A model generated the notes under the pieces. The model was given only the letters and a program-made list of their open reading frames with translations, was not told the origin of the DNA and ran no database searches. The position numbers were made by a program, and so were the translations under genes. A stretch of DNA of 36,357 bases, taken from a virus. Where the stretch lies: UHGV virus genome UHGV-1353415. One strand, 5' to 3'. Below are positions 8,477 through 35,696 of this stretch, piece by piece; the first letter of the stretch is position 1, and each line of letters starts with the position of its first letter.

Positions 8477-9063
8477 TGGATATTCTCTCTACACTTTTTC
8501 ATCAGCAGAGCAGAAAAATAGGAATGATTGTTCCCAGTGTTGTTATTTCAGAGAAGCATACAGATATGCTTGAAATAACAGAGCATCCGGTAGAGGTTGG
8601 GGCCGCTGTCGCTGATCATGCCTATAAAAAACCGTCAGAAGTGGTGATGGAGGTTGGTTTCGCCGGTGGCGGCGCATTGCTGGATTTTGCCAGTAATCTG
8701 ACGGCTACCAGCCTGCTCGGCCTGAGTCCTCAGCAGACGTATCAGGAGCTACTGGATCTGCAGGAAAGCCGTATCCCCTTCGATGTGGTAACCGGTAAAC
8801 GACTGTACAGCAACATGTTGATCCGGGCGCTGGAAGTGACGACGGACAAGACAACCGAAAACGTCCTGTCCGCCGTCCTCACCCTGAGGGAGGTCCTTAT
8901 CTCCCGGACACAGCAGATCACCGTCGCGGATAAAACCAACATGAAGGAAGGGGCCAGCACGTCGGCGCTACAGAACAGCGGCAACAAAACCACAAAGCCT
9001 CCAGATACTTCACTGCTGAAAAGCATCACTGGTAACGTGGCGTCATTACTGGGAGGCGGCTAA
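8476..9063 (+). CDS. tail/baseplate protein (hypothetical)
   Basis: 195-aa ORF, GTG start overlapping the tape measure stop. Confidence 0.4.
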   Translation: MDILSTLFHQQSRKIGMIVPSVVISEKHTDMLEITEHPVEVGAAVADHAYKKPSEVVMEVGFAGGGALLDFASNLTATSLLGLSPQQTYQELLDLQESRIPFDVVTGKRLYSNMLIRALEVTTDKTTENVLSAVLTLREVLISRTQQITVADKTNMKEGASTSALQNSGNKTTKPPDTSLLKSITGNVASLLGGG

Positions 9064-9365
9064 TGACTATTCAGGAAATTCCGCTGACAGCGGACAACCA
9101 GCAGTTCAGCATCGTCCTGGGTGGTGTCACTTGGCAGATTAGCATCATATGGCGCGATCCTTACTGGATTATGGACCTGCAGAACGACAGAGGGGAGCCG
9201 GTAATCTCCGGTATTCCTCTCGTCACTGGCGCTGATCTGCTGGCGCAGTACGCCTGTATGGGGCTTGGTTTTAAGCTGGTGGTGGTCTGCGATGACAACA
9301 CACAGGATTATCCCTCGAAAACTGATCTGGGTGGCCGCAGTCATTTACTGGTATCAACGGAGTAA
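9063..9365 (+). CDS. tail/baseplate protein (hypothetical)
   Basis: 100-aa ORF overlapping the upstream stop (ATGA). Confidence 0.4.
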   Translation: MTIQEIPLTADNQQFSIVLGGVTWQISIIWRDPYWIMDLQNDRGEPVISGIPLVTGADLLAQYACMGLGFKLVVVCDDNTQDYPSKTDLGGRSHLLVSTE

Positions 9366-9367
9366 GC

Positions 9368-10432: not shown

Positions 10433-10764
10433 TGAAACGGTTATGTTTGGCGTTAGTTATGATGGTTACTGCTCCGGCGATGGCTGCAATTCAGTGCGGC
10501 AACTACACGATGACCGGTGACGGAATGACTGTTATTAACGGTGAAACTGTCACATCACAGAAGATAAAATTTCTGGGAAAAGATGGTGACTATTCAAACA
10601 TAAAAATGGACATGGGCCTGATGCCTTCCCGTGATGGTAACAATTACGGCTTTGAGTTTGTGAAACGTAACGGAAAAGCTTTCCTGAATGTCCAACTGCT
10701 GCAGAACAGCATGGATGCGCCGAAAATCATCGGCTCCTTCCCGTGTAAAAAGGTTGATGGTTAA
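10432..10764 (+). CDS. small secreted protein with N-terminal signal peptide (accessory)
   Basis: ATG overlaps the hub stop (TAATG); MKRLCLALVMMVTAPAMA then AIQC looks like a Sec signal peptide with AXA site; about 110 aa. Confidence 0.5.
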   Translation: MKRLCLALVMMVTAPAMAAIQCGNYTMTGDGMTVINGETVTSQKIKFLGKDGDYSNIKMDMGLMPSRDGNNYGFEFVKRNGKAFLNVQLLQNSMDAPKIIGSFPCKKVDG

Positions 10765-10932
10765 CCAAAAGTTACATTTCTGCATAGTGTTGAGTTTGTT
10801 CACATTCACTAAATAATGATTTTTTATCGCTTGCTAGGTGGTTGCATGATCACTAAACTTTGCGAACTTTTAGCGCTCAGCTAACTTTGAATAAGTGGTG
10901 TATAGTCGTTTAAAACGACAGAGGGATTGGGT
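10765..10932 (+). promoter_or_regulatory. AT-rich intergenic region with TATAGT -10-like element (10901..10906) and 15-bp perfect palindrome GTCGTTTAAAACGAC (10905..10919); putative autoregulated promoter/operator
   Basis: Palindrome and -10-like hexamer read directly; only non-coding gap over 100 bp inside the tail gene block; -35 element not confidently placed. Confidence 0.35.
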
Positions 10933-11505
10933 ATGGCGATTAGCTACGCATTTGCGCTGGCAACAATTACACAACAAATGAATCAGGTTCAGGAAGCTGT
11001 TAACGGTGCTTTCAAACCCCTGATCTCTAATGCTTGTGAACTGCCACAACGATTAGATGCTGAAGAGGTATTTCGTCGTTGTACCGCGATTGCTGCACGC
11101 GCTCAAGAAATCGAAAATACCGCGAAGGAAGGCATGTCTCATCTCGAAGCTTTTCGAAATGGGAGAATCATTGTTGATGAGCTTCCGGAAGAGTTTTTAT
11201 CCCATCTCGAAGGTCTTGCCAAGGCATGCCGAAATGCTAAAGGACATTTAGTGGATATGTTCTCTGAAGCGGAAAGGTCCCCTATGTGGCAAGGCCATCT
11301 GCAAATGTTGCGCCCATTAAAACGCAAATATGTTCGTGCGTTGACCGCCGTCGAGAACACTGCAACTCAGTTGGCCGCTGAAGTTAGGCAATCGCAGCCT
11401 TTCCAGGCTGAACTCTTGTCAGATAATGTTACCCGTGAAGAGGCTATTGAACTGATCTCAACATCGCATAAGATGCTGGGAGCCAACGCCCCTAAATGGA
11501 TGTGA
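10933..11505 (+). CDS. hypothetical protein, putative antitoxin/partner of the downstream YafO-like gene
   Basis: ATG at 10933 with SD GAGGGA 6 nt upstream (track start 10927 is TTG); about 190 aa, no recognised motif; stop 1 nt before the next gene's ATG. Confidence 0.55.
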   Translation: MAISYAFALATITQQMNQVQEAVNGAFKPLISNACELPQRLDAEEVFRRCTAIAARAQEIENTAKEGMSHLEAFRNGRIIVDELPEEFLSHLEGLAKACRNAKGHLVDMFSEAERSPMWQGHLQMLRPLKRKYVRALTAVENTATQLAAEVRQSQPFQAELLSDNVTREEAIELISTSHKMLGANAPKWM

Positions 11506-11506
11506 C

Positions 11507-11923
11507 ATGGCAAAAGTCAGTATCACGGGAGAATTGCGTCATTTAGCTGCAGCACATAAGTATGCTCAAATGCTTGCCGATTATATTTCAAAGGGTTCCC
11601 AGTTCTGGTGTTTTGGTTCGTTAGGCGGTTTTGAACGTAACTATGATGCGATGGCTGCCAACATCAGGAAAATTCACTTAAAGCTACCTGGCGATAAACC
11701 CTGGCCTCCAGAAGCATCTCTGAGTGAACGGACATGTGATAATTTTTTGGTATATGCTCAGCATCTTTATATCGATGAACACTATCAGATATTGGCAATC
11801 ATCAGCCCAAACGCTCATCAGCAAGCTGATTCGATGCTTCCCCGGCTGATAAAATTAGCAGAGGAAACCTTCATAGAACTTCCTCCTGATGAACTCGAAA
11901 AATTGAAAACCTACGATTCATAA
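11507..11923 (+). CDS. YafO-family toxin-like protein (putative ribosome-dependent mRNA interferase)
   Basis: 138 aa; blocks IHLKLPGDKPWPPE, SERTCDNFLVYAQ, QILAIISPNAH and LAEETF match the pattern I recall for E. coli YafO (IHLANENNPFPPQ, SRTNDEAHLVYCQ, LLIAILKPEPH, MAEAF). Confidence 0.5.
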   Translation: MAKVSITGELRHLAAAHKYAQMLADYISKGSQFWCFGSLGGFERNYDAMAANIRKIHLKLPGDKPWPPEASLSERTCDNFLVYAQHLYIDEHYQILAIISPNAHQQADSMLPRLIKLAEETFIELPPDELEKLKTYDS

Positions 11924-11924
11924 A

Positions 11925-11948
11925 CCCGCCACCCGGCGGGTTTTTTGC
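11925..11948 (+). terminator. Rho-independent terminator after the two-gene cassette
   Basis: CCCGCC-ACCC-GGCGGG hairpin followed by TTTTTT. Confidence 0.6.
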
Positions 11949-11965
11949 TTTCTGGAGCCTACTAA

Positions 11966-12721
11966 ATGGCAGTATCTGACCAGACCCGCAGCGGCGACCT
12001 TGCCGAAACATTCAAATCTGAACGGGAAACAACAAAGAACCAGATCCGTGTCGCCTTGCCTGGCATTGTTCAGTCATTCGATCCCGACGCGGTGACGGCG
12101 GTTGTGCAGCCAGCTATCCGTTCGGTTGAAAAGGATAACGACGGTAACCGCATTACCAAAAATTACCCGTTGCTGGTGGATGTGCCAGTGGTATTTCCGC
12201 GCGGTGGAGGCTGTACGTTGACTTTTCCGGTTAAAGCCGGGGATGAATGCCTGGTGATTTTCGCCGACCGCTGCATCGATTTCTGGTGGCAGAACGGCGG
12301 GGTGCAGGAGCCTGTCGACGACCGGGTGCATGATTTATCGGATGCTTTCTGTATCGTCGGGCCGCAGTCTCAGGCGCAGAAAATAAGCGGAATAAGCACC
12401 AGTGGCGCGCAGCTGCGTACTGATGATGGCGCTGCGTTTGTGGAAGTGGCCGCAGGCCATAATATCACGGTTAAAACTCCCGGCGCGTTGACGGCGACAG
12501 CAGAAGGAGGAACCACGATCACATCACCCACCATCACGCTAAACGGCAACGTGACAATAAACGGGAATCTCTCTCAGGGGATGGGCGAAAGCGGCGGCAC
12601 CGCGACGATGCTTGGCCCTGTCACGGTGACTAACGATGTAAAAGCTGGTGGTAAGAGCCTGATGACGCACACGCACGGCGGAGTACAGACCGGCGGCGGT
12701 AACACAGGAGCGCCTAACTGA
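11966..12721 (+). CDS. baseplate central spike protein (gpV/gp45-like)
   Basis: 251 aa with Gly/Thr-rich C-terminus and HTHGGVQTGGGNT-type motif; RBS CTGGAGCC..AAATGG. Confidence 0.5.
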   Translation: MAVSDQTRSGDLAETFKSERETTKNQIRVALPGIVQSFDPDAVTAVVQPAIRSVEKDNDGNRITKNYPLLVDVPVVFPRGGGCTLTFPVKAGDECLVIFADRCIDFWWQNGGVQEPVDDRVHDLSDAFCIVGPQSQAQKISGISTSGAQLRTDDGAAFVEVAAGHNITVKTPGALTATAEGGTTITSPTITLNGNVTINGNLSQGMGESGGTATMLGPVTVTNDVKAGGKSLMTHTHGGVQTGGGNTGAPN

Positions 12722-13074
12722 TGCGATACAGACGTGAAGACGCCGATGGCGATTATACCTTTGGCAGCGGTGATGACACCTGGCTGATTAACTCACCGGA
12801 GGCCGTGGCGCAGGCGGTAAAAACGCGATTCGAATTGTGGTATGGGCAATGGTTTCTCGATACCACCGAAGGGACTCCGTGGATCCAGTCCGTACTCGGT
12901 AAGCAGAAGCCGGAAACCTACAACCTGGCGATCCGTAAGCGCATCCTCGAAACGCGGGGCGTTAAATCAATCCTCTCTTTCAATACGACGGTGGATACCA
13001 CGACCCGACGTGTCATGTTTTCCGCTGAAATCGACACTCTTTATGGAATAACGACTGTTACATCGGAGGCGTAA
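12721..13074 (+). CDS. baseplate protein (gp25/W-like position)
   Basis: 117-aa ORF with ATGA overlap, between spike and J-like genes. Confidence 0.4.
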   Translation: MRYRREDADGDYTFGSGDDTWLINSPEAVAQAVKTRFELWYGQWFLDTTEGTPWIQSVLGKQKPETYNLAIRKRILETRGVKSILSFNTTVDTTTRRVMFSAEIDTLYGITTVTSEA

Positions 13075-14273
13075 TGGCTCTGAACCTTGATTCTCTTGGT
13101 TTATCTGCAAAGGTAACCGCAGAGGGGATCAGTGCGCCTGATTATCAGACGATACTCAGCACCCTGATTAGCTATTTTCAGCAGATTTATGGCAGTGATG
13201 CCTACCTCGAACCGGACAGCAAAGACGGCCAGATGGTGGCTTTGATGGCGCTGGCGATTCATGATGCCAATAATATGGCGATAACTGTCTACAACTGTTT
13301 TTCACCGGCAACCGGCTATGGGGCTGCACTGACCAGCAACGTGAAAATAAATGGTATTTCACGTAAAGGCGCGACGAACTCTACGGTTGATTTGCTTCTT
13401 ACAGGAACTGCCGGAACAACCATCATTAATGGCAGCGTGAAAGACAGTAATAATGTGATATGGCGTTTGCCTGCTTCAGTGGTGGTCGGCGTGGATGGTA
13501 CAGTGATGGCGACCGCAAAATGTTCCGTCAGTGGTGCAGTGGCGGCGCTGGCTGGAACTATCACTGAAATTAATACGCCAACCCGTGGCTGGGTTTCGGT
13601 AACTAATCCTGCTGCGGCTACTGTTGGCTCTCCGGCAGAAACTGATGCTGAGTTACGTATCCGCCAGTCGCAAAGTGTTGCGTTGCCATCAATAACCCCA
13701 TTTGAAGCACTGGATGGTGCTGTTTCTAATGTTACCGGTGTAACCCGCCACAAACTCTATGAAAACGATACTGGTTCGGAGGACGGTAACGGGTTACCGC
13801 CACACTCTGTTGCTGTAATTGTGGATGGCGGTGATGTGACGGATATTGCTCAGGCTATCAGAGGGAATAAAGGCCAGGGGACAGCCACTCACGGTACAAC
13901 ATCCGTTACGGTTCCGGATAAATACGGCAATCCCCATGTAATCAAATTCTCGCGTTCCAGTGATGTACCTGTTTATGCCCGGATTAAATTAAAAGTTTTT
14001 ACGGGTTATACCTCACAGATAGGGCAGCAGATCCAGCAGGCTATTTCCGACTATATCAATAGTCTGACGATTGGTGATTCGGTCCTTTTGAGTCGCATTT
14101 ACTCACCGGCGAATCTTGGCGTGGTGAGTGGCGGGAATGCACGCTATTACGATATTCAGGAACTGACGATTGGGAAATCCCCGGGGGCTTTGTCGTCATC
14201 AAACATTGATATCAGATACAACGAATCTGCGTCCTGTACCCCGGAAAATATCGTTATAACGGTGGAGTCATGA
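13074..14273 (+). CDS. baseplate J-like protein
   Basis: 399-aa ORF in conserved position after the spike and small baseplate protein. Confidence 0.5.
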   Translation: MALNLDSLGLSAKVTAEGISAPDYQTILSTLISYFQQIYGSDAYLEPDSKDGQMVALMALAIHDANNMAITVYNCFSPATGYGAALTSNVKINGISRKGATNSTVDLLLTGTAGTTIINGSVKDSNNVIWRLPASVVVGVDGTVMATAKCSVSGAVAALAGTITEINTPTRGWVSVTNPAAATVGSPAETDAELRIRQSQSVALPSITPFEALDGAVSNVTGVTRHKLYENDTGSEDGNGLPPHSVAVIVDGGDVTDIAQAIRGNKGQGTATHGTTSVTVPDKYGNPHVIKFSRSSDVPVYARIKLKVFTGYTSQIGQQIQQAISDYINSLTIGDSVLLSRIYSPANLGVVSGGNARYYDIQELTIGKSPGALSSSNIDIRYNESASCTPENIVITVES

Positions 14274-14950
14274 GCAAATACACCGAACTAATCACGAACT
14301 ACCACGCCACCAAACCTAAATTTCTTGCGCATGTTGATCTGATGACCCGGCCGCTTATTGATGTTGCGGCTGCCACCAGAGGGCTGATTACTGCATTTGA
14401 TATTGACTCTGCGGTTGGTGTGCAACTTGACATTCTTGGATTGTGGATCGGACGTAGCCGTGTTGTCAGCCAGCCTATCTCAGGTGTCTATTTCAGCTGG
14501 GATACCGACGGGCTTGGATATGATCAGGGTGTATGGCAGGGGCCATACGATCCTGATTCCGGATACATGTACCTCAGCGATGAAACTTATCGTGTCATCC
14601 TTAAAGCGAAGATTGCGATTAATAACTGGGATGGACGGAATGATTCGCTTCCGGCAATTCTTGACGCGGCGACAGCAGGATCCGGACTGCGAATGCAGAT
14701 AGTCGATAACCAGGACATGACGATATCGGTCTGGGTCTTTCCTGATACTGATATTTCAGATGTATCGCGTGAGTTAATTGCTGCAATTAAACAGGGATAT
14801 CTCACAGTAAAAGCCGCCGGTGTGTGGGCGGGTGGCATTGAAACACCTTCGGTGGAAACCCCATCGGAAGGTTCAAAATTTTTTGGTTTTGATATGGATA
14901 ACGAATTCATCAGTGGTTTTGATGTAGGGGCATGGGGAGTATTACTCTGA
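14270..14950 (+). CDS. baseplate/tail protein (gpI / Mu gp48-like position)
   Basis: 226-aa ORF, 4-nt overlap with the J-like gene. Confidence 0.45.
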
Positions 14951-15645
14951 TGGCGAAAAATGACTTTAAAGCGTTTGCAACGGATCGAAATGCCAATGTT
15001 ATGTCGCAGGAGGAATGGGAAGCGTTGCCTGCGCTTTTATCCGGATTTACAGCAGGGAAAGCCTCCAGTGCGCAAGTCAATAAGGTTATTCGGCAGGCCA
15101 GCTTTATTGCTGCAGCTCTGGCCCAGTTTGTAAGTGATAAAACGCAACGGGATGTGCTTGATAATGGTGATCTGCCCGGTTTTGTTGAATTGCTGGGATC
15201 GGGGTTTGCTGTTGAATACCTGAGTCGCAAAAATCCATTTGGCGATATCAAATCGGATGGCACTGTGCAAACGGCTCTCGAAAACCTTGGTTTGGGAGAA
15301 GCGGCTAAAAGAAATGTAGGGACCGGCACCAATCAAATTCCTGACATGTCTAGCTTTACAAGTGGAAATGGCTGGTGTCGTTACCCTGATGGAACTATCT
15401 TTCAACGTGGTGTTTCAGTGGCAGGAGCGATTGGATCTCCCACTTTTATAAATTTCCCCATTGCATTTACCGACTACTCAACCGTGCAAATTGTTGTGTC
15501 GTATGATAATGCGGGATCTGCAGTAAATTCAATTCCTTCTTTTGCGGCTACACCCGTTAGTACCGGTCTTGGTTTTAGCTTAATGGGTTCCCAGCCATCA
15601 GGTAGCAATACAACTTATTGTCGATGGATAGCTATAGGTAAATAA
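14950..15645 (+). CDS. tail fibre protein
   Basis: ATG at 14950 overlapping the upstream stop; N-terminal region typical of enterobacterial phage tail fibres (..[16 protein letters not shown]..), followed by an assembly chaperone gene. Confidence 0.5.
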
Positions 15646-15646
15646 A

Positions 15647-16078
15647 ATGAAAAAATATGTGTACAGTGCAATAAATAACGCTTTCTATCCAACATCAATG
15701 AAAGAAGATTATATTTCTGGAAATTGCTGGCCTACTGATGGTGTTGAATGTGACGAAGATATATTTACAGAATATACAAAGGAACCGCCAACTGGGAAGG
15801 TCCGCATCGCTGGAAAAGATGGTTATCCGGAATGGGGTGAACTACCAGCACTAACTCATGATGAGCAGGTAGCAGCAGCAGAACGCAAGAGGCAGATTCT
15901 TATTGAACAGGCCAACTCTAACATGAACAGCAAGCAATGGCCTGGAAAAGCGGCTATGGGTCGGCTCCGTAATGATGAAAAATATCAGTATGGTGCATGG
16001 CTGGATTATCTTGATGAATTGGAAGCTATTAATGTTACCAAGGCTCCCGACATAGAATGGCCTATTAAGCCAGCTTAA
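15647..16078 (+). CDS. tail fibre assembly protein (Tfa)
   Basis: 143 aa starting MKKYVYSAINNAFYP.., the characteristic Tfa N-terminus; directly after the fibre gene. Confidence 0.6.
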   Translation: MKKYVYSAINNAFYPTSMKEDYISGNCWPTDGVECDEDIFTEYTKEPPTGKVRIAGKDGYPEWGELPALTHDEQVAAAERKRQILIEQANSNMNSKQWPGKAAMGRLRNDEKYQYGAWLDYLDELEAINVTKAPDIEWPIKPA

Positions 16079-16082
16079 CTTC

Positions 16083-16114
16083 ATTGGTCACTCAGCATTT
16101 GCTGAGTGACCAAT
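16083..16114 (+). terminator. 15-bp perfect inverted repeat hairpin terminating the tail operon
   Basis: ATTGGTCACTCAGCA tt TGCTGAGTGACCAAT followed by ATTTTA; lies between the convergent Tfa and acyltransferase genes. Confidence 0.55.
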
Positions 16115-16474
16115 ATTTTAACTAATTGTTTTTAAACTGTTTTTTTCATTGCGGGTTTTTCAATGTATAAGTAAGTTAAGCAACTTATCATTGCACAAAT
16201 TGATAAAGATATTGCTGCAAACGCAGTATAGTTTAATGAGCTTGAAATGAAATTAAAGGTCATTACCATGCTTAAGCCATGCATCAAATAAATGCTGTAA
16301 CTTACAGAACCCGCCACCTTGAAGAACTTGGTGTTTATAATTTGAAAAGCTTTGGAGCCAGTACACGCACTTAAAAAAAACAAAAATAGCGGAATCACTA
16401 TGTAAACATTGTAAATGTTAAAGTCCTGCCAGTATGCAACAGCAATAAGCGATAAAAGGGGTAATGACTCCAAC

Positions 16475-16978
16475 TTACTGATAGTGTTTTATGTTCAGAT
16501 AATGCCCGATGACCTTGTCATGCAGCTCCACCGATTTTGAGAACGACAGTGACTTCCGTCCCAGCCTTGCCAGATGTTGTCTCAGATTCAGGTTATGCCG
16601 CTCAATTCGCTGAGTGTAACGCTTGCTGATTACGTGCAGCTTTCCCTTCAGGCGGGATTCATACAGCGGCCAGCCATCCGTCATCCATACCACGACCTCA
16701 AAGGCCGACAGCAGGCTTAGAAGACGCTCCAGTGTGGCCAGAGTGCGTTCACCGAATACGTGCGCAACAACCGTCTTCCGGAGCCTGTCATACGCGTAAA
16801 ACAGCCAGCGCTGGCGCGATTTAGCCCCGACGTATCCCCACTGTTCGTCCATTTCCGCGCAGACGATGACGTCACTGCCCGGCTGTATGCGCGAGGTTAC
16901 CGACTGCGGCCTGAGTTTTTTAAATGGCGGAAAATCGTGTTGAGGCCAACGCCCATAATGCGGGCGGTTGCCCGGCAT
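16475..16978 (-). CDS. insB: IS1 InsB (transposase frame, expressed as InsAB' by frameshift)
   Basis: 167-aa product ..[44 protein letters not shown].. matches IS1 InsB. Confidence 0.85.
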
Positions 16979-17172
16979 CCAACGCCATTCATGGCCATAT
17001 CAATGATTTTCTGGTGCGTACCGGGTTGAGAAGCGGTGTAAGTGAACTGCAGTTGCCATGTTTTACGGCAGTGAGAGCAGAGATAGCGCTGATGTCCGGC
17101 GGTGCTTTTGCCGTTACGCACCACCCCGTCAGTAGCTGAACAGGAGGGACAGCTGATAGAAACAGAAGCCAC
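16897..17172 (-). CDS. insA: IS1 InsA
   Basis: 91-aa product [43 protein letters not shown].. matches IS1 InsA. Confidence 0.9.
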
Positions 17173-18327
17173 TGGAGCACCTCAAAAACACCATCATACA
17201 CTAAATCAGTAAGTTGGCAGCATCACCATAAAAGGTACACAATTGTCATCATTACGCTATTGGCTTGTTTGATAGCGTTGTTCTTTAGGTAACCAGAAGC
17301 TAGCGCTGCAACAAAGCCACCAATAAAGCAAAAGAGAAGAGTGGCAAACATTTCACTGATAAGCCCTTGGCGGTAAGCAATTAATACCGAGAAAAGCATA
17401 ATTATTACCGAAAAACATGCATCTCTTATTGATTTTACGAACATAGAGATATATGGTAAAATTATATAAAAACCCCACTCATATGCAAGAGTCCAGATAA
17501 CCCCGCCAACGATTAAAGATCCATGAATAGAAGGTGTAAGGCCATTAGGGTCAATTATACCAAACGTAAAATATCGGCCAACTTCAACAATAATGTTGTG
17601 AATCCCAATGCTATCGTTGGGTCGAATTAATTCAGAAACACAAACAACGCAAAGCACCATGAATGCATACATTGGAATTAGTCTCTTAACTCGCGCCGAC
17701 AAAAATATTGCAGCATTGTTTATTGGTTTATTTATTATTTTTCTAAAGAAGAGAAACCCTGTAATCATAAAGAATATCATGACTGGAATGGAGCCAAAAT
17801 ATGCAATAGCCAATAAACTATTGTTGCTTGACTTCGCCGTAAATCCATCATTCAAAAATATACTCCATTTATCATGATAAAGATAATTGAACATATATAC
17901 TGAATGGTGAAGGGCGACCATGACAGCCGCCAACCCCCTGAGGCAAGATAAATTGTCATCACCTCGCAACCCAAAAGAAGAGTCTGCAACTAATTCATTC
18001 TTAAACCTTCCGGCAATCCAAAAAACAAAAAATACAGGGATGGAAGATAAAATAAAGATAATAAACGTCAAGTCAAACATAAAAACGCTCACGACCATTA
18101 GGGATTATATAATATCCTGATGTTAAATCATTTAAAGCTATACTTCATTACATTTATATAAAAACGGTAATGGAAAAGATGGTATGAAAATTTCCGCTTT
18201 AAAAACAATTGGATATAATTCTTTCTGTTCTCGTGTTAATCCTATCAAAAAAATGGGATGGGTGCATCATCAACGATGCGCGTGCAGGTTAGTTTGATGA
18301 CTACCCGCTGAAGTGAAAATTGTGTTG

Positions 18328-18621
18328 TGTACCAAATTGCGTACCAAACTAAAATCACAAATCATGAAACCCTTGTTCATGGCGGTTCTCAGGGGTGTTG
18401 CGCGTAATCGTGAAAGAGGAAGGTAGGTTGTTTATCTGTGCCTGTCATTGTCTAGCATTGTCCACTGTAGTTAATTAACTGTCTGTTATAACTCGAAAAA
18501 CAACCCTTTTTTAACCTGAGTATGTCTACGAACGTCAAATATAGTTGTTTACTGTGCGCTGTTGTCCATGTGATATTGTGTACCAGATGTGTACCAAACC
18601 ATTATTTTTGAGCGTACCAAA
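18328..18621 (+). repeat. attP-like region with five GTACCA(A/G)A direct repeats (putative integrase arm-type sites)
   Basis: Copies at about 18329, 18341, 18580, 18591 and 18614, flanking roughly 220 bp of non-coding AT-rich DNA immediately upstream of int. Confidence 0.4.
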
Positions 18622-18629
18622 TATTATTT

Positions 18630-19808
18630 ATGGCTATAAGCGACACAAAACTGCGTACTATTTATGGTAAACCATATTCGGGCCCACAAGAAGTGGCTGA
18701 TGCCGATGGCCTCAGCGTACGAATTTCACCGAAGGGGGTCATCCAGTTCCAGTACCGCTATCGCTGGCATGGCAAGCCTAATCGACTTGGGCTTGGTCGA
18801 TACCCATCCCTGTCTTTGAAGGATGCCAGACAGATCACTGCTGACTTGCGAAAGCTCTATTTCTCAGGAACGGATCCACGCACTTATTTTGAAGAGAAGG
18901 TGGAGAACTCCATGACGGTCGCCCAGTGTCTCGACTACTGGTTCGACAACTACGTCTCTACAACTCTCAGAGAAAAGACCCAGGCACTTTACCGATCAAC
19001 GGTTATGAAGCGCATGTATGACGCCTTCCCTAATCGTCCGGCATCTTCTATCACGGTTAAGCAATGGGTTGACCTGCTTACCGAAGAAGAAAGAGATAAT
19101 CCACGCCGAGCAAGGCAGGTGCTAAGTCAACTAAGATCAGCAATAAGTTGGTGCATGCGGCGTCAGTTGATAGATAGTTGCGCAATTATGAGCATCCAAC
19201 CAAGGGACTTCGGCTCCCGCGCTGAGGTAGGGGAGCGGGTACTGTCGTATCACGAACTGGCTAAGATTTGGCTTGCTATTGAAAGAAGCCGTGCGTCTAC
19301 GTCAAATAAGCTCCTTCATCAGATGCTTATGCTGTGGGGGTCGAGGCTCTCAGAGCTTAGGCTGGCAACAAAGACAGAATTTGACCTGCTGGACAACGTA
19401 TGGACCGTACCGAAAGAGCATAGCAAGATGGGTAATGTTATCCGCCGTCCAATCTTCGAACAAATTAAGCCTTTTCTCGAAAAGGCCATGACAACGTACA
19501 ATGATGTTCTTTTCCCTGGAGAAGACATAAACAAACCGATCAGCATCGCTGCAGCCAACCGATTCGTAAATAGAATAAGGGGAGGGATGGACATAGGTTA
19601 CTGGCGAACACATGATTTCAGAAGAACGCTTGTTACACGGCTGTCCGAGATGAATGTCGAGCCCCATGTTACTGAGCGAATGCTCGGTCATGAACTTGGC
19701 GGGATAATGTCCGTGTACAATAAACACGACTGGATAGAGGCTCAGCGCAAAGCGTATGAGCTTCACGCTGATAAATTGTTCTGGCACATCAGGAACATTT
19801 CTGGTTAA
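18630..19808 (+). CDS. int: tyrosine integrase (P4-type, with N-terminal arm-binding domain)
   Basis: 392 aa; catalytic-type motifs ..HDFRRT.. and ..LGHELGGIMSVYNKHD.. near the C-terminus; N-terminal ..LSVRISPKGVIQFQYRYRW.. arm-binding fold signature. Confidence 0.85.
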   Translation: MAISDTKLRTIYGKPYSGPQEVADADGLSVRISPKGVIQFQYRYRWHGKPNRLGLGRYPSLSLKDARQITADLRKLYFSGTDPRTYFEEKVENSMTVAQCLDYWFDNYVSTTLREKTQALYRSTVMKRMYDAFPNRPASSITVKQWVDLLTEEERDNPRRARQVLSQLRSAISWCMRRQLIDSCAIMSIQPRDFGSRAEVGERVLSYHELAKIWLAIERSRASTSNKLLHQMLMLWGSRLSELRLATKTEFDLLDNVWTVPKEHSKMGNVIRRPIFEQIKPFLEKAMTTYNDVLFPGEDINKPISIAAANRFVNRIRGGMDIGYWRTHDFRRTLVTRLSEMNVEPHVTERMLGHELGGIMSVYNKHDWIEAQRKAYELHADKLFWHIRNISG

Positions 19809-20470: not shown

Positions 20471-20750
20471 TCGCATTCGTTCAAATTGCGTTTACTTCTT
20501 GGCGTTCTGTTCATCCATATCGATATACCATGGGTTGCTTCCCTTGGGCATGTTTAACGACTGCTCGCGATAGTATCTGATGCGCTCCATGAAATACTCG
20601 CGTGAGTGCTCAGGTTGCTCTCATGATACCTGCTCAGTGATAACAGGCATGTTAAGGCGCTCTCTGTACTCCATGCCTGATGCTGCAAGGTCAACGTTTA
20701 CCTTGTTCTGTTTTTCTTTCGATTTCTCGGCGATGTTATGCCTGACATTG

Positions 20751-20993
20751 TCAACCCGCCTCCTTCTGAACATAACGGTTATAAATCAGTCCCTGAGGGC
20801 CATAAGGAAGCGGGATGTGCAACTCCTCTGGTTCAGAAACTATCCATTCCCCGGCCATCTCCGCTGGAGAGGTAATGATAAGTTGTTTGCTAATAAAAGG
20901 ACCACTCCTCTCAACAACAAGCTTACCATCTTCATTAATAAAAGCTTGGATGTCAGGTGTGCTTCCACACTTGGTGATGCAGCGTTTGAACAT
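20751..20993 (-). CDS. hypothetical 80-aa protein (accessory gene with own promoter)
   Basis: ORF MFKRCITKCG..; extended -10 promoter upstream and terminators downstream on the same strand. Confidence 0.5.
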   Translation of the reverse strand: MFKRCITKCGSTPDIQAFINEDGKLVVERSGPFISKQLIITSPAEMAGEWIVSEPEELHIPLPYGPQGLIYNRYVQKEAG

Positions 20994-21988: not shown

Positions 21989-22549
21989 TCACTCTCCTTT
22001 GATGCGAATGCCAGCGGAGCGGATTGCAGCGATGACTTCAGAAACTTTGTATGCCATTACCGTTTGGTAATCCTCGTGGAAATCTGTTCGATGAAGCATG
22101 CTGCTACGTTCCGGGAGCAGTATTTCCCGCGCTTCCAGTTCTGCAATGCGCTTCTCTGCGGCTTCCAGCTCAACACGCAGCTTCCCTACCGTTAGCGCAA
22201 TATCCTCGTTCTCCTGGTCGCGGCGTTTGATGTATTGCTGGTTTCTTTCCCGTTCATCCAGAAGCGCCAGCACGGTAGCTGGACTGGCTGCGGCGATGAA
22301 TTCAGCGTTGGCCTGCTGTTCCATTTGGAAATCTTCATCGAAACCGCTTTCTGGATGCGCTCCTTCAATTCTGCAAATGGGAAGATATCCAACAACTTCA
22401 CGATGAATTAGTGCATCACCAGCATCAAATCTCTCCTCTCCATATTCGAGCGACCACACACCACACGTTGCTTTTTCTGCCTTAGCACGCAGTGCCTGAT
22501 AGTCAATCTTGCTCACTGGTTGCCTCCTTTGCGAAGCTGCTCCGCACAA
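21989..22549 (-). CDS. Ea22/Ead-like protein (start uncertain)
   Basis: Coiled-coil-rich ORF; one of three adjacent paralogue-like genes. Confidence 0.45.
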   Translation of the reverse strand: MCGAASQRRQPVSKIDYQALRAKAEKATCGVWSLEYGEERFDAGDALIHREVVGYLPICRIEGAHPESGFDEDFQMEQQANAEFIAAASPATVLALLDERERNQQYIKRRDQENEDIALTVGKLRVELEAAEKRIAELEAREILLPERSSMLHRTDFHEDYQTVMAYKVSEVIAAIRSAGIRIKGE

Positions 22550-23157
22550 TGCAGCAGGGCGTCCGTCGCTTCTTTCACCGTAACGATGTCGCCATCGTCC
22601 AGCCCGGCAACCGTCGCGTCCTTAACGAACACCGAGCAAAGGTCATTAAACGCCTGCGCACGTACTTCAGCCAGGAGAGCGTCGGTGACCGGAGTTTCAG
22701 GAATCCGTCTCCTCATCCGTTCTATTGCATGATTGAACCCGAAATCTTCAGCAAGAGATACGTCATCCATATTGTCATTGTCGTCCTCAATATCCAGTGG
22801 TTCTGGAATTGCAGACTTTATTACCGCATTCTCCGCTGCCAGCGCCGCACACTTGGCCTCAAGAGCGGCAACCACTTCCTGATGGTCTTTGTACTTAACG
22901 TATGAGCCGGAGATGTCATCACCTTCGGTGTTTAGCCATGCGTCATTGCAATTCACTGCGTAGGTTCTGATGCTCATGCTGATGCTCTCCCGCCCCTGAC
23001 AGACGCCAGGCCAGTCAATAAAGTATCCGCAATGCCTACCCTCAGACGTGCGCGCAGGATAAATGCCGTTATGACCCGGCAAAATATATGCTACCCATTC
23101 ATCTTGCGTTGCCTGTTTCGCCGCCTCGCGCAGTTCTTTATAGTTAATTTCGCTCAC
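22513..23157 (-). CDS. Ea22/Ead-like protein
   Basis: 214 aa; C-terminus ..[25 protein letters not shown] shared with the next paralogue. Confidence 0.5.
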   Translation of the reverse strand: MSEINYKELREAAKQATQDEWVAYILPGHNGIYPARTSEGRHCGYFIDWPGVCQGRESISMSIRTYAVNCNDAWLNTEGDDISGSYVKYKDHQEVVAALEAKCAALAAENAVIKSAIPEPLDIEDDNDNMDDVSLAEDFGFNHAIERMRRRIPETPVTDALLAEVRAQAFNDLCSVFVKDATVAGLDDGDIVTVKEATDALLHCAEQLRKGGNQ

Positions 23158-26783: not shown

Positions 26784-26984
26784 TCAGGCAGCCTTGTTGT
26801 TCTGTTTACCAATTTCTCTGGCAATCATTGCCGTCGTTCGTATTGCCCATTTATCGACATATTTCCCATCTTCCATCACAGGAAACATTTCTTCAGGCTT
26901 AACCATGCATTCCGATTGCAGCTTGCATCCATTGCATCGTTTGAATTGTCCACACCATTGATTCTTATCAATAGTCGTAGTCAT
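26784..26984 (-). CDS. ral: Ral-like restriction-alleviation protein
   Basis: 66 aa, MTTTIDKNQWCGQFKRCNGCKLQSECMV.. closely matches my recollection of lambda Ral; first gene downstream of N. Confidence 0.5.
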   Translation of the reverse strand: MTTTIDKNQWCGQFKRCNGCKLQSECMVKPEEMFPVMEDGKYVDKWAIRTTAMIAREIGKQNNKAA

Positions 26985-27062: not shown

Positions 27063-27362
27063 TCAAATAAGTGGTTTGCTGCCTAATTTCATTTTCTGGC
27101 GACCAACACAAGTCACACCCATTTCACTGCGTGGCTTGCGGTAGTAAATACGATTCTGTTTACTCTCGACTTCTTCTGCCTTCTTGCAGCGAAGGCTTCC
27201 GAGTGATGCCGCTTTGTCTGCTCTGACGCAACCAGAGAGCTTTAGCGCAATTTTTCGCGCCAGTGCTTCATTACTGCGTCGCTCGGCAATAAGTTCTGCT
27301 CTGCGAGCTTTGTAGCGGCTTTTTGCCGTACCTTTGGATTCTTTCCAGACAATGGTTACCAT
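27063..27362 (-). CDS. N: N-like transcription antiterminator
   Basis: ATG at 27362; Arg-rich N-terminal motif (AKSRYKARRAELIAERR); C-terminus ..NRIYYRKPRSEMGVTCVGRQKMKLGSKPLI aligns with lambda N ..QRTWYSKPGERGITCSGRQKIKGKSIPLI. Confidence 0.7.
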   Translation of the reverse strand: MVTIVWKESKGTAKSRYKARRAELIAERRSNEALARKIALKLSGCVRADKAASLGSLRCKKAEEVESKQNRIYYRKPRSEMGVTCVGRQKMKLGSKPLI

Positions 27363-29199: not shown

Positions 29200-30007
29200 G
29201 TTAGCTGATTACAGGCCTCAACTGGAGGTCGTGGAGCATCGCGTGGCAGATACCGAAGATGGTTTCATGCGCGTTGCTAACGAGATTACCGACAGTCTGC
29301 TGATGGCTGATTTAACCGTCCGGCAGATGAAGGTGATGCTCGCTATCATGCGCAAGACATACGGATTCAATAAGCCGATGGATCGACTCACAAACACGCA
29401 GATAGCAGCCATGACAGGTATTCATCACACTCATGTTTGCGCTGCCAAGCGCCAGCTTATCGAGCGTAAATTCCTCATTGCTGATGGCGTGAAAATCGGA
29501 GTGAACAAGGTGGTTTCTCAGTGGATTAGCCAGGACAGCTTAACATTAGCTAAAACAGCTAATAAAACATTAGCCAAGTCGGCTAATGGGTATAAGCCAA
29601 GTCAGCTAAACACAAAAGACAATATACAAAAGACAATAAATACAAATACCCCCTTACCCCCTAACGGGGGCGGCGATGGGCAGGTTAAACCTGAACGTCG
29701 CAAGGCAGAACGAATCGACTACGAATCCTTCCTGAACGCCTACAACACCGAAGTCGGTGACAGACTTCCACATGCTGTTGCGGTCAACGAGAAACGCAAA
29801 CGCCGCCTGAAGAAAATCATCCCGCAACTGAAAACGCCAAACGTGGACGGTTTCAGAGCGTATGTCAGGGCGTTTGTGCATCAGGCCAAGCCGTTTTACT
29901 TCGGAGACAACGACACGGGCTGGACGGCAGATTTTGATTACCTGCTGAGGGAAGACTCGTTAACGGGAGTTCGGGAAGGGAAGTTTGCAGACAGGGGGAT
30001 TGCATGA
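29186..30007 (+). CDS. replication initiation protein (O-like)
   Basis: 273 aa; N-terminal HTH-like region; central direct repeats at DNA level (TTAGCTAAAACAGCTAATAAAACATTAGCCAAGTCGGCTAATGGGTATAAGCCAAGTCAGCTAAA) look like iteron-type origin repeats inside the gene. Confidence 0.65.
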
Positions 30008-31380
30008 GACAGGATATCGAAGCGAGCGTTATCGGTGGCCTGCTGATTGGTGGATTAACTCCAACCGCCAGTGACGTTCTGGCAACGCTTGAGCCGGAAG
30101 CGTTTTCAATTCCGCTCTACAGGAAAGCCTTCGAAGTTATCCGTAAGCAGGCGAGAAACAGAAACCTAATCGACGCGCTGATGGTTGCCGAGGCGTGCGG
30201 AGAGGAGCATTTCACCTCAATCCTGATGACCAGCAAAAACTGCCCGAGCGCCGCAAACCTGAAGGGATATGCCGGAATGGTCGCGGATAACTATCACCGC
30301 CGTCTGGTGCTGGAAATCATGGATGAAATGCGTGAACCAATTCAGAGCGGAACCATCGACGCATCGAGTCAGGCGATGGATGAACTTGTAAAGCGTCTTT
30401 CAGCCATCAGAAAGCCCCGTGACGAGGTTAAACCTGTACGGTTAGGGGAAATCATCACTGACTACACCGACACGCTTGACAGGCGTCTGAGGAACGGAGA
30501 AGAGTCAGATACCCTGAAGACCGGAATCGAAGAACTTGACGCCATCACCGGAGGGATGAACGCAGAAGACCTTGTGATAATCGCTGCTCGTCCTGGTATG
30601 GGGAAAACCGAACTGGCGCTGAAGATTGCCGAAGGCGTTGCAAGCCGCGTTATTCCTGGTTCTGACGTCAGGCGCGGGGTATTGATTTTCTCAATGGAAA
30701 TGAGCGCATTGCAGATTGCAGAGCGAAGCATTGCCAACGCCGGGAGGATGTCGGTTAGCGTGCTGCGAAATCCTGCATCGATGGATGACGAAGGCTGGGC
30801 GCGCGTTGCTAACGGCATGAGTCAGCTTGCAGATTTGGATGTATGGGTAGTCGATGCCTCGCGGTTATCGGTCGAAGAAATACGCTCAATCGCAGAACGG
30901 CACAAACAGGAAAATCCAAACCTGTCACTCATCATGGCGGATTATCTTGGCCTGATTGAGAAGCCGAAAGCAGACCGCAACGACCTCGCAATTGCTCACA
31001 TCTCCGGAAGCCTGAAGGCGATGGCGAAAGGCCTGAAAACACCGGTTATTTCCCTGAGTCAGCTTTCACGCGATGTTGAGAAGCGACCAAACAAACGCCC
31101 GACAAACGCAGATTTGCGTGATTCAGGAAGCATTGAACAGGACGCAGACTCAATCATCATGCTCTATCGGGAAGCGGTATATGACGAGAGCAGTAGCGCC
31201 GCGCCATTTGCTGAAATCATCGTGACGAAAAACCGTTTTGGCTCGCTTGGTACGGTTTACCAGCGGTTCTGTAACGGACACTTTGTTGCATGTGACCAGG
31301 ATGAAGCCAGACAGATTTGCACAGCATCAAATGCACCTGCTGCGCGTGGCAGACGATATGCACAAGGGGCTGACGTATGA
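30004..31380 (+). CDS. DnaB-family replicative DNA helicase
   Basis: 458 aa with Walker A ARPGMGKT and DnaB-like C-terminal motifs; ATGA overlap with the O-like gene. Confidence 0.85.
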
Positions 31381-31405
31381 CCATCTACATCACTGAGCTA
31401 ATAAC

Positions 31406-31436
31406 AGGCCTGCTGGTAATCGCAGGCCTTTTTATT
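31406..31436 (+). terminator. Rho-independent terminator after the replication genes (tR2-like)
   Basis: AGGCCTG-(loop)-CAGGCCT followed by TTTTTATTT. Confidence 0.5.
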
Positions 31437-31453
31437 TGGGGGAGAGGGAAGTC

Positions 31454-31636
31454 ATGAATCTGGACGAGCAAGATGCACAAACTATTAGCTCATACATAAG
31501 GGCATCAAGACCAGATTACAAAGGTCCGGTGTTCGTAGATTTATCTCGCCTTGAAGAGATTTACATGTGGGAAGCAAGGCTACTTACGCATCTTTTTATT
31601 CGCAAGATGACTAGCAACATTACAAAACCAATGTAA
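31454..31636 (+). CDS. hypothetical small protein (nin region)
   Basis: ATG at 31454 with SD GGGAGAGGGAAG (track start 31436 is TTG); 60 aa. Confidence 0.4.
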   Translation: MNLDEQDAQTISSYIRASRPDYKGPVFVDLSRLEEIYMWEARLLTHLFIRKMTSNITKPM

Positions 31637-31650
31637 CTGGAGAGGTGAAT

Positions 31651-31866
31651 GTGAGCACACTCGCAGACCTTATTCATGCCGATATGGCGGAAGATGGAGC
31701 AAGGCGTAATAGGTACTGGAAATCATCAAGCCTTCCAGTTTGTGAAAGATTCAACCACAGGCCAAAACCAAAACGTAGCCGACGAGACAAGGTGTTGAAA
31801 AAACTCATGCAAATAAACATGGCTGGTTTTGTCAGATTCGTGAGTGAAACGATTAACGGTGATTGA
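31651..31866 (+). CDS. hypothetical small basic protein (start uncertain)
   Basis: ORF with GTG starts at 31645/31651 after GGAGAGG; Lys/Arg-rich. Confidence 0.3.
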   Translation: MSTLADLIHADMAEDGARRNRYWKSSSLPVCERFNHRPKPKRSRRDKVLKKLMQINMAGFVRFVSETINGD

Positions 31867-31867
31867 T

Positions 31868-32056
31868 ATGGACGATAACTTAGAGAGATTTGAAGATTGG
31901 TGCGCTGATGAACTTGGTGTCTCCGCTTGCTTCATTCGACAAATGAGAAGCAAGAATATTTTGGGCGTGATTGTGTATAAACGAGTTGAAATAAACAAGA
32001 GATACAGGGCTTGGATGGCCGCAGTTCGCACCGCCGGAGTCAAAGTGAAGGAGTAA
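31868..32056 (+). CDS. hypothetical small protein (start uncertain)
   Basis: ATG at 31868 (track GTG start 31844); ends just before ninB. Confidence 0.3.
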   Translation: MDDNLERFEDWCADELGVSACFIRQMRSKNILGVIVYKRVEINKRYRAWMAAVRTAGVKVKE

Positions 32057-32058
32057 CG

Positions 32059-32469
32059 ATGAAGCAAACAATCTTCCTCCGAACTAAGCAACAACAGCAA
32101 GCCGCAATCAACGCCATCCTCGCAACACCACTCGATAAAGACAAGCCAGTCACCATCCGCATTACTGACTACAAGCGCAACCTTGACCAGAACGCAAAAT
32201 TTCACGCGATGCTGGCGGATATCGCTAGGCAAGTTCAGTGGCGCGATAAATGGTTAAAACCAGAACAATGGAAGGTTTTGTTGATCAGCGGTCATGCAGT
32301 GGCAACAAAGCAGGAAGCTGATGTTTTGCCCGGGCTTGAAGGCGAATACGTCAACATTCGCGAAAGCAGCGCGCAGATGAGTGTGAAGCGTATGGCAAGT
32401 CTGATTGAGTACACAACAGCCTGGGCTATTGGTCAGGGTGTCAGATTTACCGACAGGAGGTACGAATGA
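32059..32469 (+). CDS. ninB: NinB recombination protein
   Basis: MKQTIFLRT.. with ..[33 protein letters not shown].. resembling lambda NinB (..RSLDQNRKLWACLGDVSRQVEWHGRWLDAESWK..). Confidence 0.7.
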
Positions 32470-32642
32470 GGCGACAGCGACGAAGTTTCACCGACATCAT
32501 CTGCGAAAACTGCAAATACCTTCCAACGAAACGCTCCAGAAATAAACGCAAGCCAATCCCAAAAGAATCTGACGTAAAAACCTTCAACTACACGGCTCAC
32601 CTGTGGGATATCCGGTGGCTAAGACATCGTGCGAGGAAATGA
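32466..32642 (+). CDS. ninD: NinD-like small protein
   Basis: 58-aa [30 protein letters not shown].. with ATGA overlaps on both sides; not in the ORF track (below length cut-off). Confidence 0.45.
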
Positions 32643-35540: not shown

Positions 35541-35615
35541 GGGTCAGTCGTATAAAGGTCATTACGGAAGGCTGTTAACCTTCTTATCGTGGTTCGAGTC
35601 CACGCTGTCCCGCCA
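35541..35615 (+). tRNA. tRNA-like gene, anticodon GUU (Asn-like), imperfect acceptor and D stems
   Basis: Hand-folded cloverleaf: anticodon arm GAAGG-CTGTTAA-CCTTC, T arm CGTGG-TTCGAGT-CCACG, 3' CCA present; one acceptor mismatch. Confidence 0.45.
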
Positions 35616-35620
35616 AACAT

Positions 35621-35696
35621 GCTGGTTTAGCTCTAATGGTAGAGCAGTCGCCTTGTAAGCGAATGGGTAGCGGTTCAAGTCCGTTAACCAGCACCA
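35621..35696 (+). tRNA. tRNA, anticodon UGU (Thr-like)
   Basis: Hand-folded: acceptor GCTGGTT/AACCAGC, D arm GCTC-TAATGGTA-GAGC, anticodon loop CTTGTAA, T arm AGCGG-TTCAAGT-CCGTT, discriminator A, CCA. Confidence 0.6.

Follow-up and report, generated by a model that had tools for sequence, protein, structure and literature searches.

What are the three short open reading frames (ORFs) that follow a terminator between the helicase gene and ninB in the lambdoid prophage of UHGV virus genome UHGV-1353415, and do they take the place of the lambda gene ren? The question was raised by the first-pass annotation of this 36,357-nucleotide (nt) stretch of DNA, referred to here as the window, which placed a terminator and three short ORFs at positions 31,406 to 32,056; both the coordinates and the description were found to be correct. 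The reading we favour, with a probability of about 0.7 for its structural and genomic part only, is that ORF1, ORF2 and ORF3 are real genes, carried as cargo of the nin region beyond the terminator tR2 and subject to mosaic exchange. The evidence consists of the position of the ORFs relative to a conserved terminator cassette, the selection pattern in their reading frames, and the behaviour of the slot in related phages.

The terminator cassette and the ren slot

The features of the locus are listed below with the evidence on which each rests.

30004–31380, plus strand: DnaB-type replicative helicase gene (like P22 gp12), the upstream flank of the ORF1–3 stretch
31377–31457, plus strand: orf26/ninA mini-ORF, 26 amino acids (aa), the boundary cassette containing tR2 (phrog_5907, NinA identity)
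31406–31439, plus strand: intrinsic terminator, tR2 equivalent by alignment with phage 21 and lambda; 8-bp G+C-rich stem and T-run
31440–31453, plus strand: Shine-Dalgarno region GGGAGAGGGAAG, serving ORF1 here and ninB in lambda (alignment)
31454–31636, plus strand: ORF1, 60 aa, ATG start, phrog_21123 (PHROG profile, selection pattern, phage homologs)
31651–31866, plus strand: ORF2, 71 aa, GTG start, Pfam DUF7301 (PF23975) and phrog_1785, homolog of ST64T/L orf69 (profile match, selection pattern)
31868–32056, plus strand: ORF3, 62 aa, ATG start, short relative of phiTE_015 (PF26207) and phrog_343 (hhalign, HMMER homologs)
32059–32469, plus strand: ninB (Orf recombination mediator), the conserved downstream flank of the variable slot (Pfam NinB E-value 1e-53, annotation pipeline)

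The hairpin has a stem at 31406–31429 (8 bp, six of them G-C, with a loop of 8) followed by TTTTTATTT, and its energy was calculated as -16.8 kcal/mol in a 50-nt context. A pattern scan for terminators was by itself not above chance (one site, against 1.5 expected in shuffled sequences). The terminator is nevertheless credible because 31381–31458 is 100% identical over 78 nt to the stretch ahead of ninB in phages 21, 434, HK106, mEp234 and many others, which the curated record of phage 21 annotates as 'terminator' inside a small 'Orf26'-like coding sequence after ren, and because it aligns with the lambda stretch between ren and ninB. In lambda the hairpin of this conserved cassette is tR2, and by the phage 21 annotation and the lambda alignment the terminator in the window is its equivalent.

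DNA alignment of the window with lambda (ren, intergenic stretch and ninB), phage L (gene 12 and ninA) and PhiR12_5 (ren and NinA) shows that a cassette of about 80 nt is common to them. It consists, in order, of an ATGA junction, a 26-codon frame in which the hairpin is embedded, the Shine-Dalgarno sequence GGGAGAGGGAAG and an ATG. In the window the ATG of orf26 overlaps the helicase stop codon and its TGA overlaps the ATG of ORF1, both as ATGA. The predicted orf26 peptide is 100% identical over 24 aa to NinA of phage L and 96% identical to NinA of PhiR12_5, and matches phrog_5907 with an E-value of 1.6e-19. This hydrophobic mini-ORF running across the hairpin shows near-perfect conservation in lambda, 21, L, SPN9CC and PhiR12_5. 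The ATG which closes the cassette (31454) is the start of ninB in lambda and the start of ORF1 in the window; a recombination junction lies at ATGAA (31454–31458), and identity to the sequences upstream of ninB in other phages stops at 31458.

The first-pass annotation assigned the ORFs to the position at which lambda carries ren, and this has to be revised. In lambda, 21 and PhiR12_5 the ren gene lies after P and upstream of the orf26/ninA–tR2 cassette, and it is likewise upstream in BP-4795. ORF1–3 are one slot further on, across the terminator, where lambda passes straight to ninB. The ren slot itself is empty in this phage, since the helicase stop codon overlaps the orf26 start.

A functional replacement of ren, with ORF1–3 acting as exclusion or anti-exclusion genes (for example against Rex-type exclusion), was also considered. 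Like lambda ren, the ORFs are small non-essential genes between the replication genes and ninB; the source-genome annotation has no ren gene in this phage, and the junction between P and ninB does hold exclusion-related cargo, such as ren in lambda, 21 and PhiR12_5 and Lar genes beyond tR2 elsewhere. However, the position downstream of tR2 is outside the ren slot, and many phages with a P22-type helicase have no ren at all. Both ren and a gene of the ORF2 family, DUF7301, are present in PhiR12_5 (in the order ren, NinA, DUF7301, Lar-like gene, NinB) and in BP-4795, so the two are not alternatives to each other. Nor is there any relationship in sequence: family profiles of ORF1, ORF2 and ORF3 found nothing among the 1,096 six-frame ORFs of lambda (best E-values 0.36 to 1.1), and no Ren-type match occurred among the Pfam results for the three ORFs. 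Judged by position and by sequence, ORF1–3 are not ren analogues, and a replacement of ren is most improbable.

In O157 Stx2a phages (NC_049945, locus L001 1893–2504, and relatives) the tR2 cassette is separated from the helicase gene by an inserted HNH endonuclease gene, which occupies the place corresponding to the ren slot; the lineage is the one that carries the truncated ORF1 described below.

Coding evidence for ORF1 and ORF2

Proportions of nonsynonymous and synonymous differences (pN and pS) were calculated by the Nei-Gojobori method in all three frames for 53 copies of ORF1, 52 of ORF2, 8 of ORF3 and 31 of ninB, drawn from IMG/VR contigs, Escherichia coli genomes and phage records. 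The ninB control gave a pN/pS of 0.09 in its annotated frame and 2.37 and 2.53 in the other frames. The corresponding values were 0.14 for ORF2 (29 alleles) against 1.71 and 0.79, 0.31 for ORF1 against 0.59 and 1.14, and 0.42 for ORF3 (six alleles only) against 0.84 and 0.97. Because the lowest value falls in the annotated frame each time and each ORF has relatives at the protein level, the three are more than chance ORFs. By this selection pattern ORF2 is clearly coding, ORF3 is probably coding, on thin data, and ORF1 is coding in two distinct parts.

Other readings of the stretch found no support. An Rfam scan of 31000–32500 (E-values up to 1) gave no match, so an RNA gene is unsupported. 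A consensus scan of the same region gave no sigma-70-like site, although weak or atypical promoters may escape such a scan. A moron would have its own promoter upstream and its own terminator downstream; the only hairpin here is the upstream tR2, and the ORFs abut ninB. A 168-aa minus-strand ORF at 31726–32232, antisense to ORF2, ORF3 and ninB, was rejected: the three genes it overlaps assort independently in relatives, so that it cannot be conserved, and the selection signal is in the plus-strand frames.

ORF1 matches phrog_21123 over its full length (residues 1–60 on profile positions 1–60 of 60, E-value 5.9e-42); there was no match to it in Pfam, NCBIfam or PADLOC. Its first 34 codons are under strong constraint (pN 0.005, pS 0.097), whereas codons 35–60 are relaxed (pN 0.060, pS 0.090, pN/pS about 0.67). 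Since synonymous sites vary equally in both halves, it is the protein that is constrained, rather than the nucleic acid, whether DNA or RNA. In 10 of the 53 copies, all of the O157:H7 Stx-phage lineage (for example NC_049945, SH2026Stx1 and phage 1717), codon 35 is a TAG stop codon, and this allele keeps precisely the constrained 34 codons. Homologs annotated at 61 aa are found in Serratia phage Eta (Eta_0038, 39% identity over 59 aa) and Klebsiella phage RSU-F4K5 (ORF_64, 51% over 47 aa), where they sit in unrelated genomic contexts.

These data bear on a reading by decay, in which ORF1 would be a pseudogene or a spurious call, and ORF3 a deletion remnant of a longer gene. For ORF1, the TAG allele, the loss of the start codon in one copy and the relaxed C-terminal half agree with decay, as does the fact that the NCBI Prokaryotic Genome Annotation Pipeline (PGAP) annotates ORF1 in none of the genomes looked at. 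Against it, the first 34 codons are fixed in protein while synonymous sites vary freely, the truncated allele retains exactly this part, and the homologs in Serratia and Klebsiella phages are of the same size.

ORF2 matches Pfam DUF7301 (PF23975) with 106.6 bits (gathering cutoff 27, E-value 7e-31, residues 3–66 on profile positions 1–64 of 65), PGAP labels the same gene 'DUF7301 family protein', and in PHROG it belongs to phrog_1785; NCBIfam and PADLOC gave no match. The first-pass annotation gave it about 72 aa with an uncertain start, and this uncertainty was real, as GTG codons at 31645 (73 aa) and 31651 (71 aa) are both candidates. It can be settled by the relatives, which have ATG at the position of 31651 in 49 of 52 copies, five bases past the Shine-Dalgarno sequence GGAGAGG; use of the upstream in-frame GTG is unlikely on this comparison. 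In the source genome PGAP called the gene from an internal ATG (31684–31866, 60 aa), which is too short, since relatives are annotated at 71 aa. The short call is probably due to GTG replacing ATG at the true start.

Identity of ORF2 is 64% to orf69 of Salmonella phages L and ST64T and 43–46% to the homologs in SPN9CC and Klebsiella phage RCIP0034, and a further homolog comes from BTP1. All DUF7301 genes of the E. coli, Salmonella and Klebsiella phages compared lie in the nin region, shortly ahead of ninB; a DUF7301 profile scan of one genome per species gave no confirmed locus. The protein has an isoelectric point of 10.35. Its AlphaFold2 model, built from a shallow alignment, is a helical hairpin (helices 4–25, 30–35 and 44–69; mean predicted local distance difference test score, pLDDT, 83; predicted template modelling score 0.44) with the Lys/Arg-rich linker RPKPKRSRRDK between two helices. 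A Foldseek search of the PDB with this model gave only E-values above 6, and profile searches of PDB sequences were empty.

Many Stx1 and Stx2 phages have another DUF7301 gene beyond the phiTE_015-family gene, a diverged paralog (MSTIAELVRANF...) with about 43% identity to ORF2, so some loci carry two DUF7301 genes. The paralog lies about 470–680 nt past ORF2 in Stx-phage contigs L015, L016, L021, L023, L027 and L030, and also at 2001–2216 of L058 and about 1801–2013 of L059. In PhiR12_5 and BP-4795 a Lar-family zinc-ribbon gene follows the DUF7301 paralog. A 'Lar-like' label on the BP-4795 paralog was rejected, as it comes from an over-long ORF call that merges the paralog with the neighbouring zinc-ribbon gene, which forms its C-terminal part.

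The mosaic slot before ninB and the short third gene

ORF1 and ORF2 travel together as a block of about 0.4 kb with 95–100% identity. The block occurs in Stx2a and Stx1 phages as well as in 95 of 5,426 complete E. coli genomes, each of which has both genes. Ahead of the more divergent DUF7301 genes there are other small genes, apparently encoding membrane proteins (orf90 in phage L, SPN9CC_0027); thus, the linkage of ORF1 to ORF2 reflects shared descent of a DNA block and is not a demonstrated functional pairing.

The third position behaves differently. Among 53 loci whose ORF2 is at least 90% identical, 32 distinct proteins of 62–152 aa in 16 clusters occupy it, and nearly every locus differs while the flanks are at least 95% identical. 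The gene begins 1 nt past ORF2; 28 of the 32 proteins begin with M-[DG]-[ED]-S-R-K and 28 end with G-[IV]-K-[VEL]-K. The family is phrog_343 (E-value 1e-29), named phiTE_015 (PF26207) by PGAP and Pfam. ORF3 is the shortest of the 32 and represents one of at least 16 cassettes that can fill the slot. DNA identity to the Stx-phage copies extends over the first 8 nt of ORF3 and no further; over the last 32 nt of the gene, identity to other alleles of the slot sets in again. The conserved ends of the slot are therefore within coding sequence, with ATGGACGA on the 5' side and, on the 3' side, the last 30 nt or so, which encode ...AGVKVKE and the ninB Shine-Dalgarno sequence. This suggests exchange by homologous recombination at these linkers.

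Other phages hold further genes in the same slot. A Lar-family restriction alleviation gene occurs beyond tR2 in PhiR12_5 (TIGR03655, E-value 4e-17), BP-4795 and Citrobacter, and the remaining occupants include a CxxC zinc-ribbon ORF and small ORFs resembling membrane proteins; the HNH endonuclease gene of Stx phages is adjacent, upstream of tR2. The proposal that this junction is a variable slot thus holds. It has been reported that nin genes are non-essential and tightly packed, with ATGA overlaps (PMC8022706), and on these comparisons the behaviour of the slot is classic lambdoid mosaicism in the non-essential nin region. A 68-aa CxxC...CxxC protein (MCVYHLKQCYGCGMP...) was seen to recur just ahead of ninB (L004 at about 3181–3387, L040, L051, and L062 at 2726–2932); it has no Pfam or NCBIfam match and is distinct from the Lar-family zinc ribbon.

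The closest arrangement is that of Salmonella phages ST64T and L, where the helicase gene is followed by ninA with its terminator, a small ORF, the DUF7301 gene orf69, the phiTE_015-family gene orf86, orf98 and ninB. It differs from the window in that the first small ORF is orf90, an apparent membrane protein, and not ORF1, in that orf86 is of full length (82 aa, compared with 62 aa for ORF3), and in the extra orf98. The genes orf69, orf86 and their neighbours are likewise uncharacterised. The Lar proteins (TIGR03655; 933V-type, BP-4795, PhiR12_5) resemble ORF1–3 as small accessory proteins in the slot between tR2 and ninB, but they are CxxC zinc ribbons and ORF1–3 have no such motif. Scans of ORF1–3 with E-values up to 1 gave no match in NCBIfam, including the Lar model TIGR03655, and none among the PADLOC-DB defence models.

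ORF3 had no family match in Pfam, PHROG, NCBIfam or PADLOC; the best was phrog_343 at an E-value of only 0.23, over the C-terminal tail. It begins MDDNLERFEDW, ends AGVKVKE and has an isoelectric point of 9.1. It occurs in 5 of the 5,426 E. coli genomes, forms 12 clusters among 5.8 billion proteins, down to 77% identity and including Citrobacter, and its frame is intact in all eight copies. A DNA search of the phage collection gave no match to ORF3, and the sole tblastn match in the same collection, at 34%, was to the N-terminal part of a protein from a Providencia phage, the end of which has a motif resembling DUF551.

Its affiliation was revealed by an exhaustive HMMER search with an ORF3 profile, which found proteins of 56–145 aa (P0040–P0052) sharing residues 1–55. 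In P0040 and P0052 the ORF3 module is followed by a variable domain and a G-I-T-V tail; in P0041, P0045 and P0046 it is followed by a DUF551 domain (E-values 3e-8 to 2e-6); and P0042–44, P0047 and P0049–51 are stand-alone homologs of 56–71 aa. P0040 is 50% identical to ORF3 (E-value 8e-15 against the ORF3 profile); it carries PF26207, and its full-length match to phrog_343 has an E-value of 4.6e-15. PF26207 was encountered only in the precomputed annotation of P0040 and of a neighbour in locus L065; the Pfam scan made here matched no scanned sequence to PF26207. By hhalign the ORF3 family aligns with the slot family over residues 1–56, the N-terminal module, with 93% probability and an E-value of 3e-7, and the ORF3 module is about 18% identical to the local E. 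coli slot alleles.

ORF3 thus has in common with phiTE_015/phrog_343 the N-terminal module (M-D-x-x-x-x-x-F-E-x-W ... R-A-W-x-A), the A-G-V-K-V-K-E tail, the slot, and the start and stop contexts. In the alignments it passes from R-A-W-M-A-A-V-R straight to the tail, so that both the central core (WQASRAAIE-(I/L)-x-LP, or W-Q-A-S-R-A-A-I-E-I-E-L-P in the local family) and the variable C-terminal domain are missing. As far as these alignments go, ORF3 unites two parts of phiTE_015-family proteins, the constant N-terminal alpha/beta module and the C-terminal tail, with nothing in between. Its AlphaFold2 model is confident and compact (pLDDT 83), and a Foldseek search of BFVD with it returned only uncharacterised proteins with E-values above 0.1. 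An identity as an excisionase or AlpA-type winged helix was rejected; Pfam and fold searches give it no support.

The reading by decay must be weighed for ORF3 as well, here as what a deletion has left of a full-length phiTE_015 gene, with translational coupling to ninB as all that it preserves. The short length, the missing core and variable domain, and the pN/pS of 0.42 from few alleles are what such a remnant would show. However, the frame is intact in every copy and across the 12 clusters, stand-alone homologs of 56–71 aa exist, and the structural model is confident. The Citrobacter farmeri locus has no DUF7301 but carries an ORF3-type gene, then in tandem a phiTE_015 gene of full length and a Lar-like gene, so the ORF3 type is a short paralog in its own right and more than an allele in decay. 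For ORF1 and ORF3 taken together, decay is decidedly unlikely. The first-pass annotation had named absence or disruption of the ORFs, without a phenotype, in otherwise identical relatives as a point against its own proposal, and this was found in part, with the ORF1 stop codon in the O157 Stx lineage and ORF3 missing from more than 90% of otherwise near-identical relatives. Its statement that the three ORFs have no recognisable family does not hold for ORF2 (DUF7301), ORF1 (phrog_21123) and, as a distant relative of phiTE_015/phrog_343, ORF3; it is right in that none of these families has a known function.

The Ea22 variants (ead/Ea22-like) of lambda and Stx phages resemble the ORF3 family in architecture: their N-terminal segment is constant while their C-terminal domains, DUF551 among them, can be swapped, and they have been described as a constant module with portable domains (PMC10834534). 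They are another family in another operon (the exo-xis region of pL) with a coiled-coil centre, and no homology to ORF3 was found, so the likeness is an analogy only. The leftward operon of the window (22139–23157, minus strand) has two neighbouring ead/Ea22-like genes, of which one is a partial, internal piece; they belong to a mosaic family with the same constant-N/variable-C architecture as the phiTE_015 family.

Expression and possible functions of the cargo genes

E. coli strain 2016C04-116 has a stretch identical to the window in its chromosome (NZ_CP131685.1). The first 18.4 kb or so (1–18448) is chromosomal and carries O-antigen wbb genes, gnd, ugd, wzzB, the his operon, yefM-yoeB and sbcB, and the remainder is a lambdoid prophage beginning at its integrase gene (18630–19808). 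As this gene lies about 180 bp past sbcB, the prophage is integrated beside sbcB. The rightward early operon runs in the order cro, cII, a 53-aa ORF, the P22-type replication protein gene, the DnaB-type helicase gene, the ORF1–3 stretch and ninB, followed by ninE, ninX, ninF, ninG, ninH, a serine/threonine phosphatase gene, Q, two tRNA genes and the holin gene.

The tRNA genes, tRNA-Asn(GTT) and tRNA-Thr(TGT), lie at 35541–35696 (plus strand) between the Q antiterminator and holin genes, in the late-promoter region, where Stx phages also have tRNAs. A homolog of DNA polymerase III theta on the prophage (20492–20773, minus strand) is annotated as a pseudogene with an internal stop codon. In the leftward operon a Ral antirestriction gene (26784–26984, minus strand, Pfam Ral E-value 7e-48) lies beside the probable N-type antiterminator gene, so the phage already has one restriction-alleviation function.

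In the reading we favour, ORF1–3 are the first cargo genes of the nin segment in the rightward early (pR) operon, between the ninA–tR2 cassette and ninB. Going by lambda biology, they would be transcribed only when an N-type antiterminator takes RNA polymerase through tR2. A probable N gene is present at 27063–27362 (minus strand), in its canonical place next to cI and ral; its match to Pfam N_peptide has an E-value of 2.6e-4, below the cutoff. With such a need for antitermination, ORF1–3 would be delayed-early lytic genes and not morons expressed in the lysogen. Translation would proceed from closely spaced starts: the spacers are 14 nt between ORF1 and ORF2 (including the GGAGAGG Shine-Dalgarno sequence), 1 nt between ORF2 and ORF3, and 2 nt between ORF3 and ninB. 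By their distribution the genes are exchangeable, non-essential cargo, which would be swapped among phages by recombination at conserved boundary sequences.

For the function of ORF1–3 no fold, defence-system or literature match was found, and a literature search for DUF7301, phiTE_015 and ST64T orf69 yielded nothing; a paper on accessory-gene screening leaves this slot uncovered (PMC12373910). The products are small (7–8 kDa) and are probably non-enzymatic binding proteins. ORF2, a basic protein predicted to form a helical hairpin, may have nucleic acid or a host protein as its target, and ORF3 might serve as a partner-binding module without an effector domain. Because of the other genes found in the slot and the hypervariable third gene, we tentatively suggest, as the most plausible role, that the products modulate host or competitor functions, in host takeover or counter-defence, while recognising that the odds are against this suggestion.

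Alternatively, ORF1–3 could be auxiliary replication or recombination factors like NinB, NinG and NinH, with ORF2, for example, as a small DNA-binding protein acting with the helicase or NinB. The location between the helicase gene and ninB, the basic nature of ORF2 with its linker and of ORF3, and the place that DUF7301 keeps just ahead of ninB in E. coli, Salmonella and Klebsiella phages are consistent with such a role. However, DUF7301 occurs with both the lambda O/P and the P22-type 18/12 modules and is thus not tied to one replication system, no DNA-binding fold was matched, and lambda and P22 manage without DUF7301 (PMC8022706). A role of this kind is unlikely.

It may also be asked whether DUF7301 and the phiTE_015-family gene form a two-gene system for defence, counter-defence or exclusion, with a conserved and a hypervariable specificity component. 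The order DUF7301 then phiTE_015 is found in 52 of 53 E. coli prophage and Stx loci, in L/ST64T (orf69-orf86) and in SPN9CC, with the pair reversed or duplicated in BP-4795 and some Stx loci, and one partner is conserved while the other is hypervariable. The order is nevertheless frequent and not obligatory: in PhiR12_5 DUF7301 is followed by a Lar-like gene, with no phiTE_015 gene, Citrobacter has the ORF3 type and phiTE_015 without DUF7301, and the P0040 locus has phiTE_015 without a called DUF7301. The co-occurrence is largely inheritance of one DNA block, and PADLOC gave no match. We consider such a system quite improbable. A more specific conjecture treats the slot beyond tR2 as an arms-race locus, home to a module for counter-defence or inter-phage exclusion. 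DUF7301 would be its conserved adaptor and the phiTE_015-family gene its rapidly shuffled specificity subunit, with ORF3, which has the N-terminal module only, as a minimal or dominant-negative form that binds the common partner but lacks an effector domain; this is highly speculative and very unlikely to hold as a whole.

To return to the favoured reading of ORF1–3 as mosaic nin cargo, the three genes belong, closely or distantly, to catalogued yet uncharacterised families in a long-known mosaic region, and in this respect the finding is largely ordinary. It consists mainly of corrections to annotation: the ORFs are real, PGAP gave ORF2 a wrong start in the source genome and systematically overlooks ORF1, and the slot concerned is the one after tR2 (ninA). 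Furthermore, it defines a sharply bounded hypervariable cassette site between the conserved DUF7301 and ninB genes in lambdoid phages of E. coli and Salmonella, including Stx phages. The previously unclassified 62-aa ORF3 can be recognised as a free-standing constant module of the mosaic phiTE_015 family, and ORF1 presents a two-part selection pattern with a natural nonsense allele that keeps only the constrained half. Should these small proteins turn out to serve in counter-defence or host takeover, more of the kind could conveniently be sought in the same slot.

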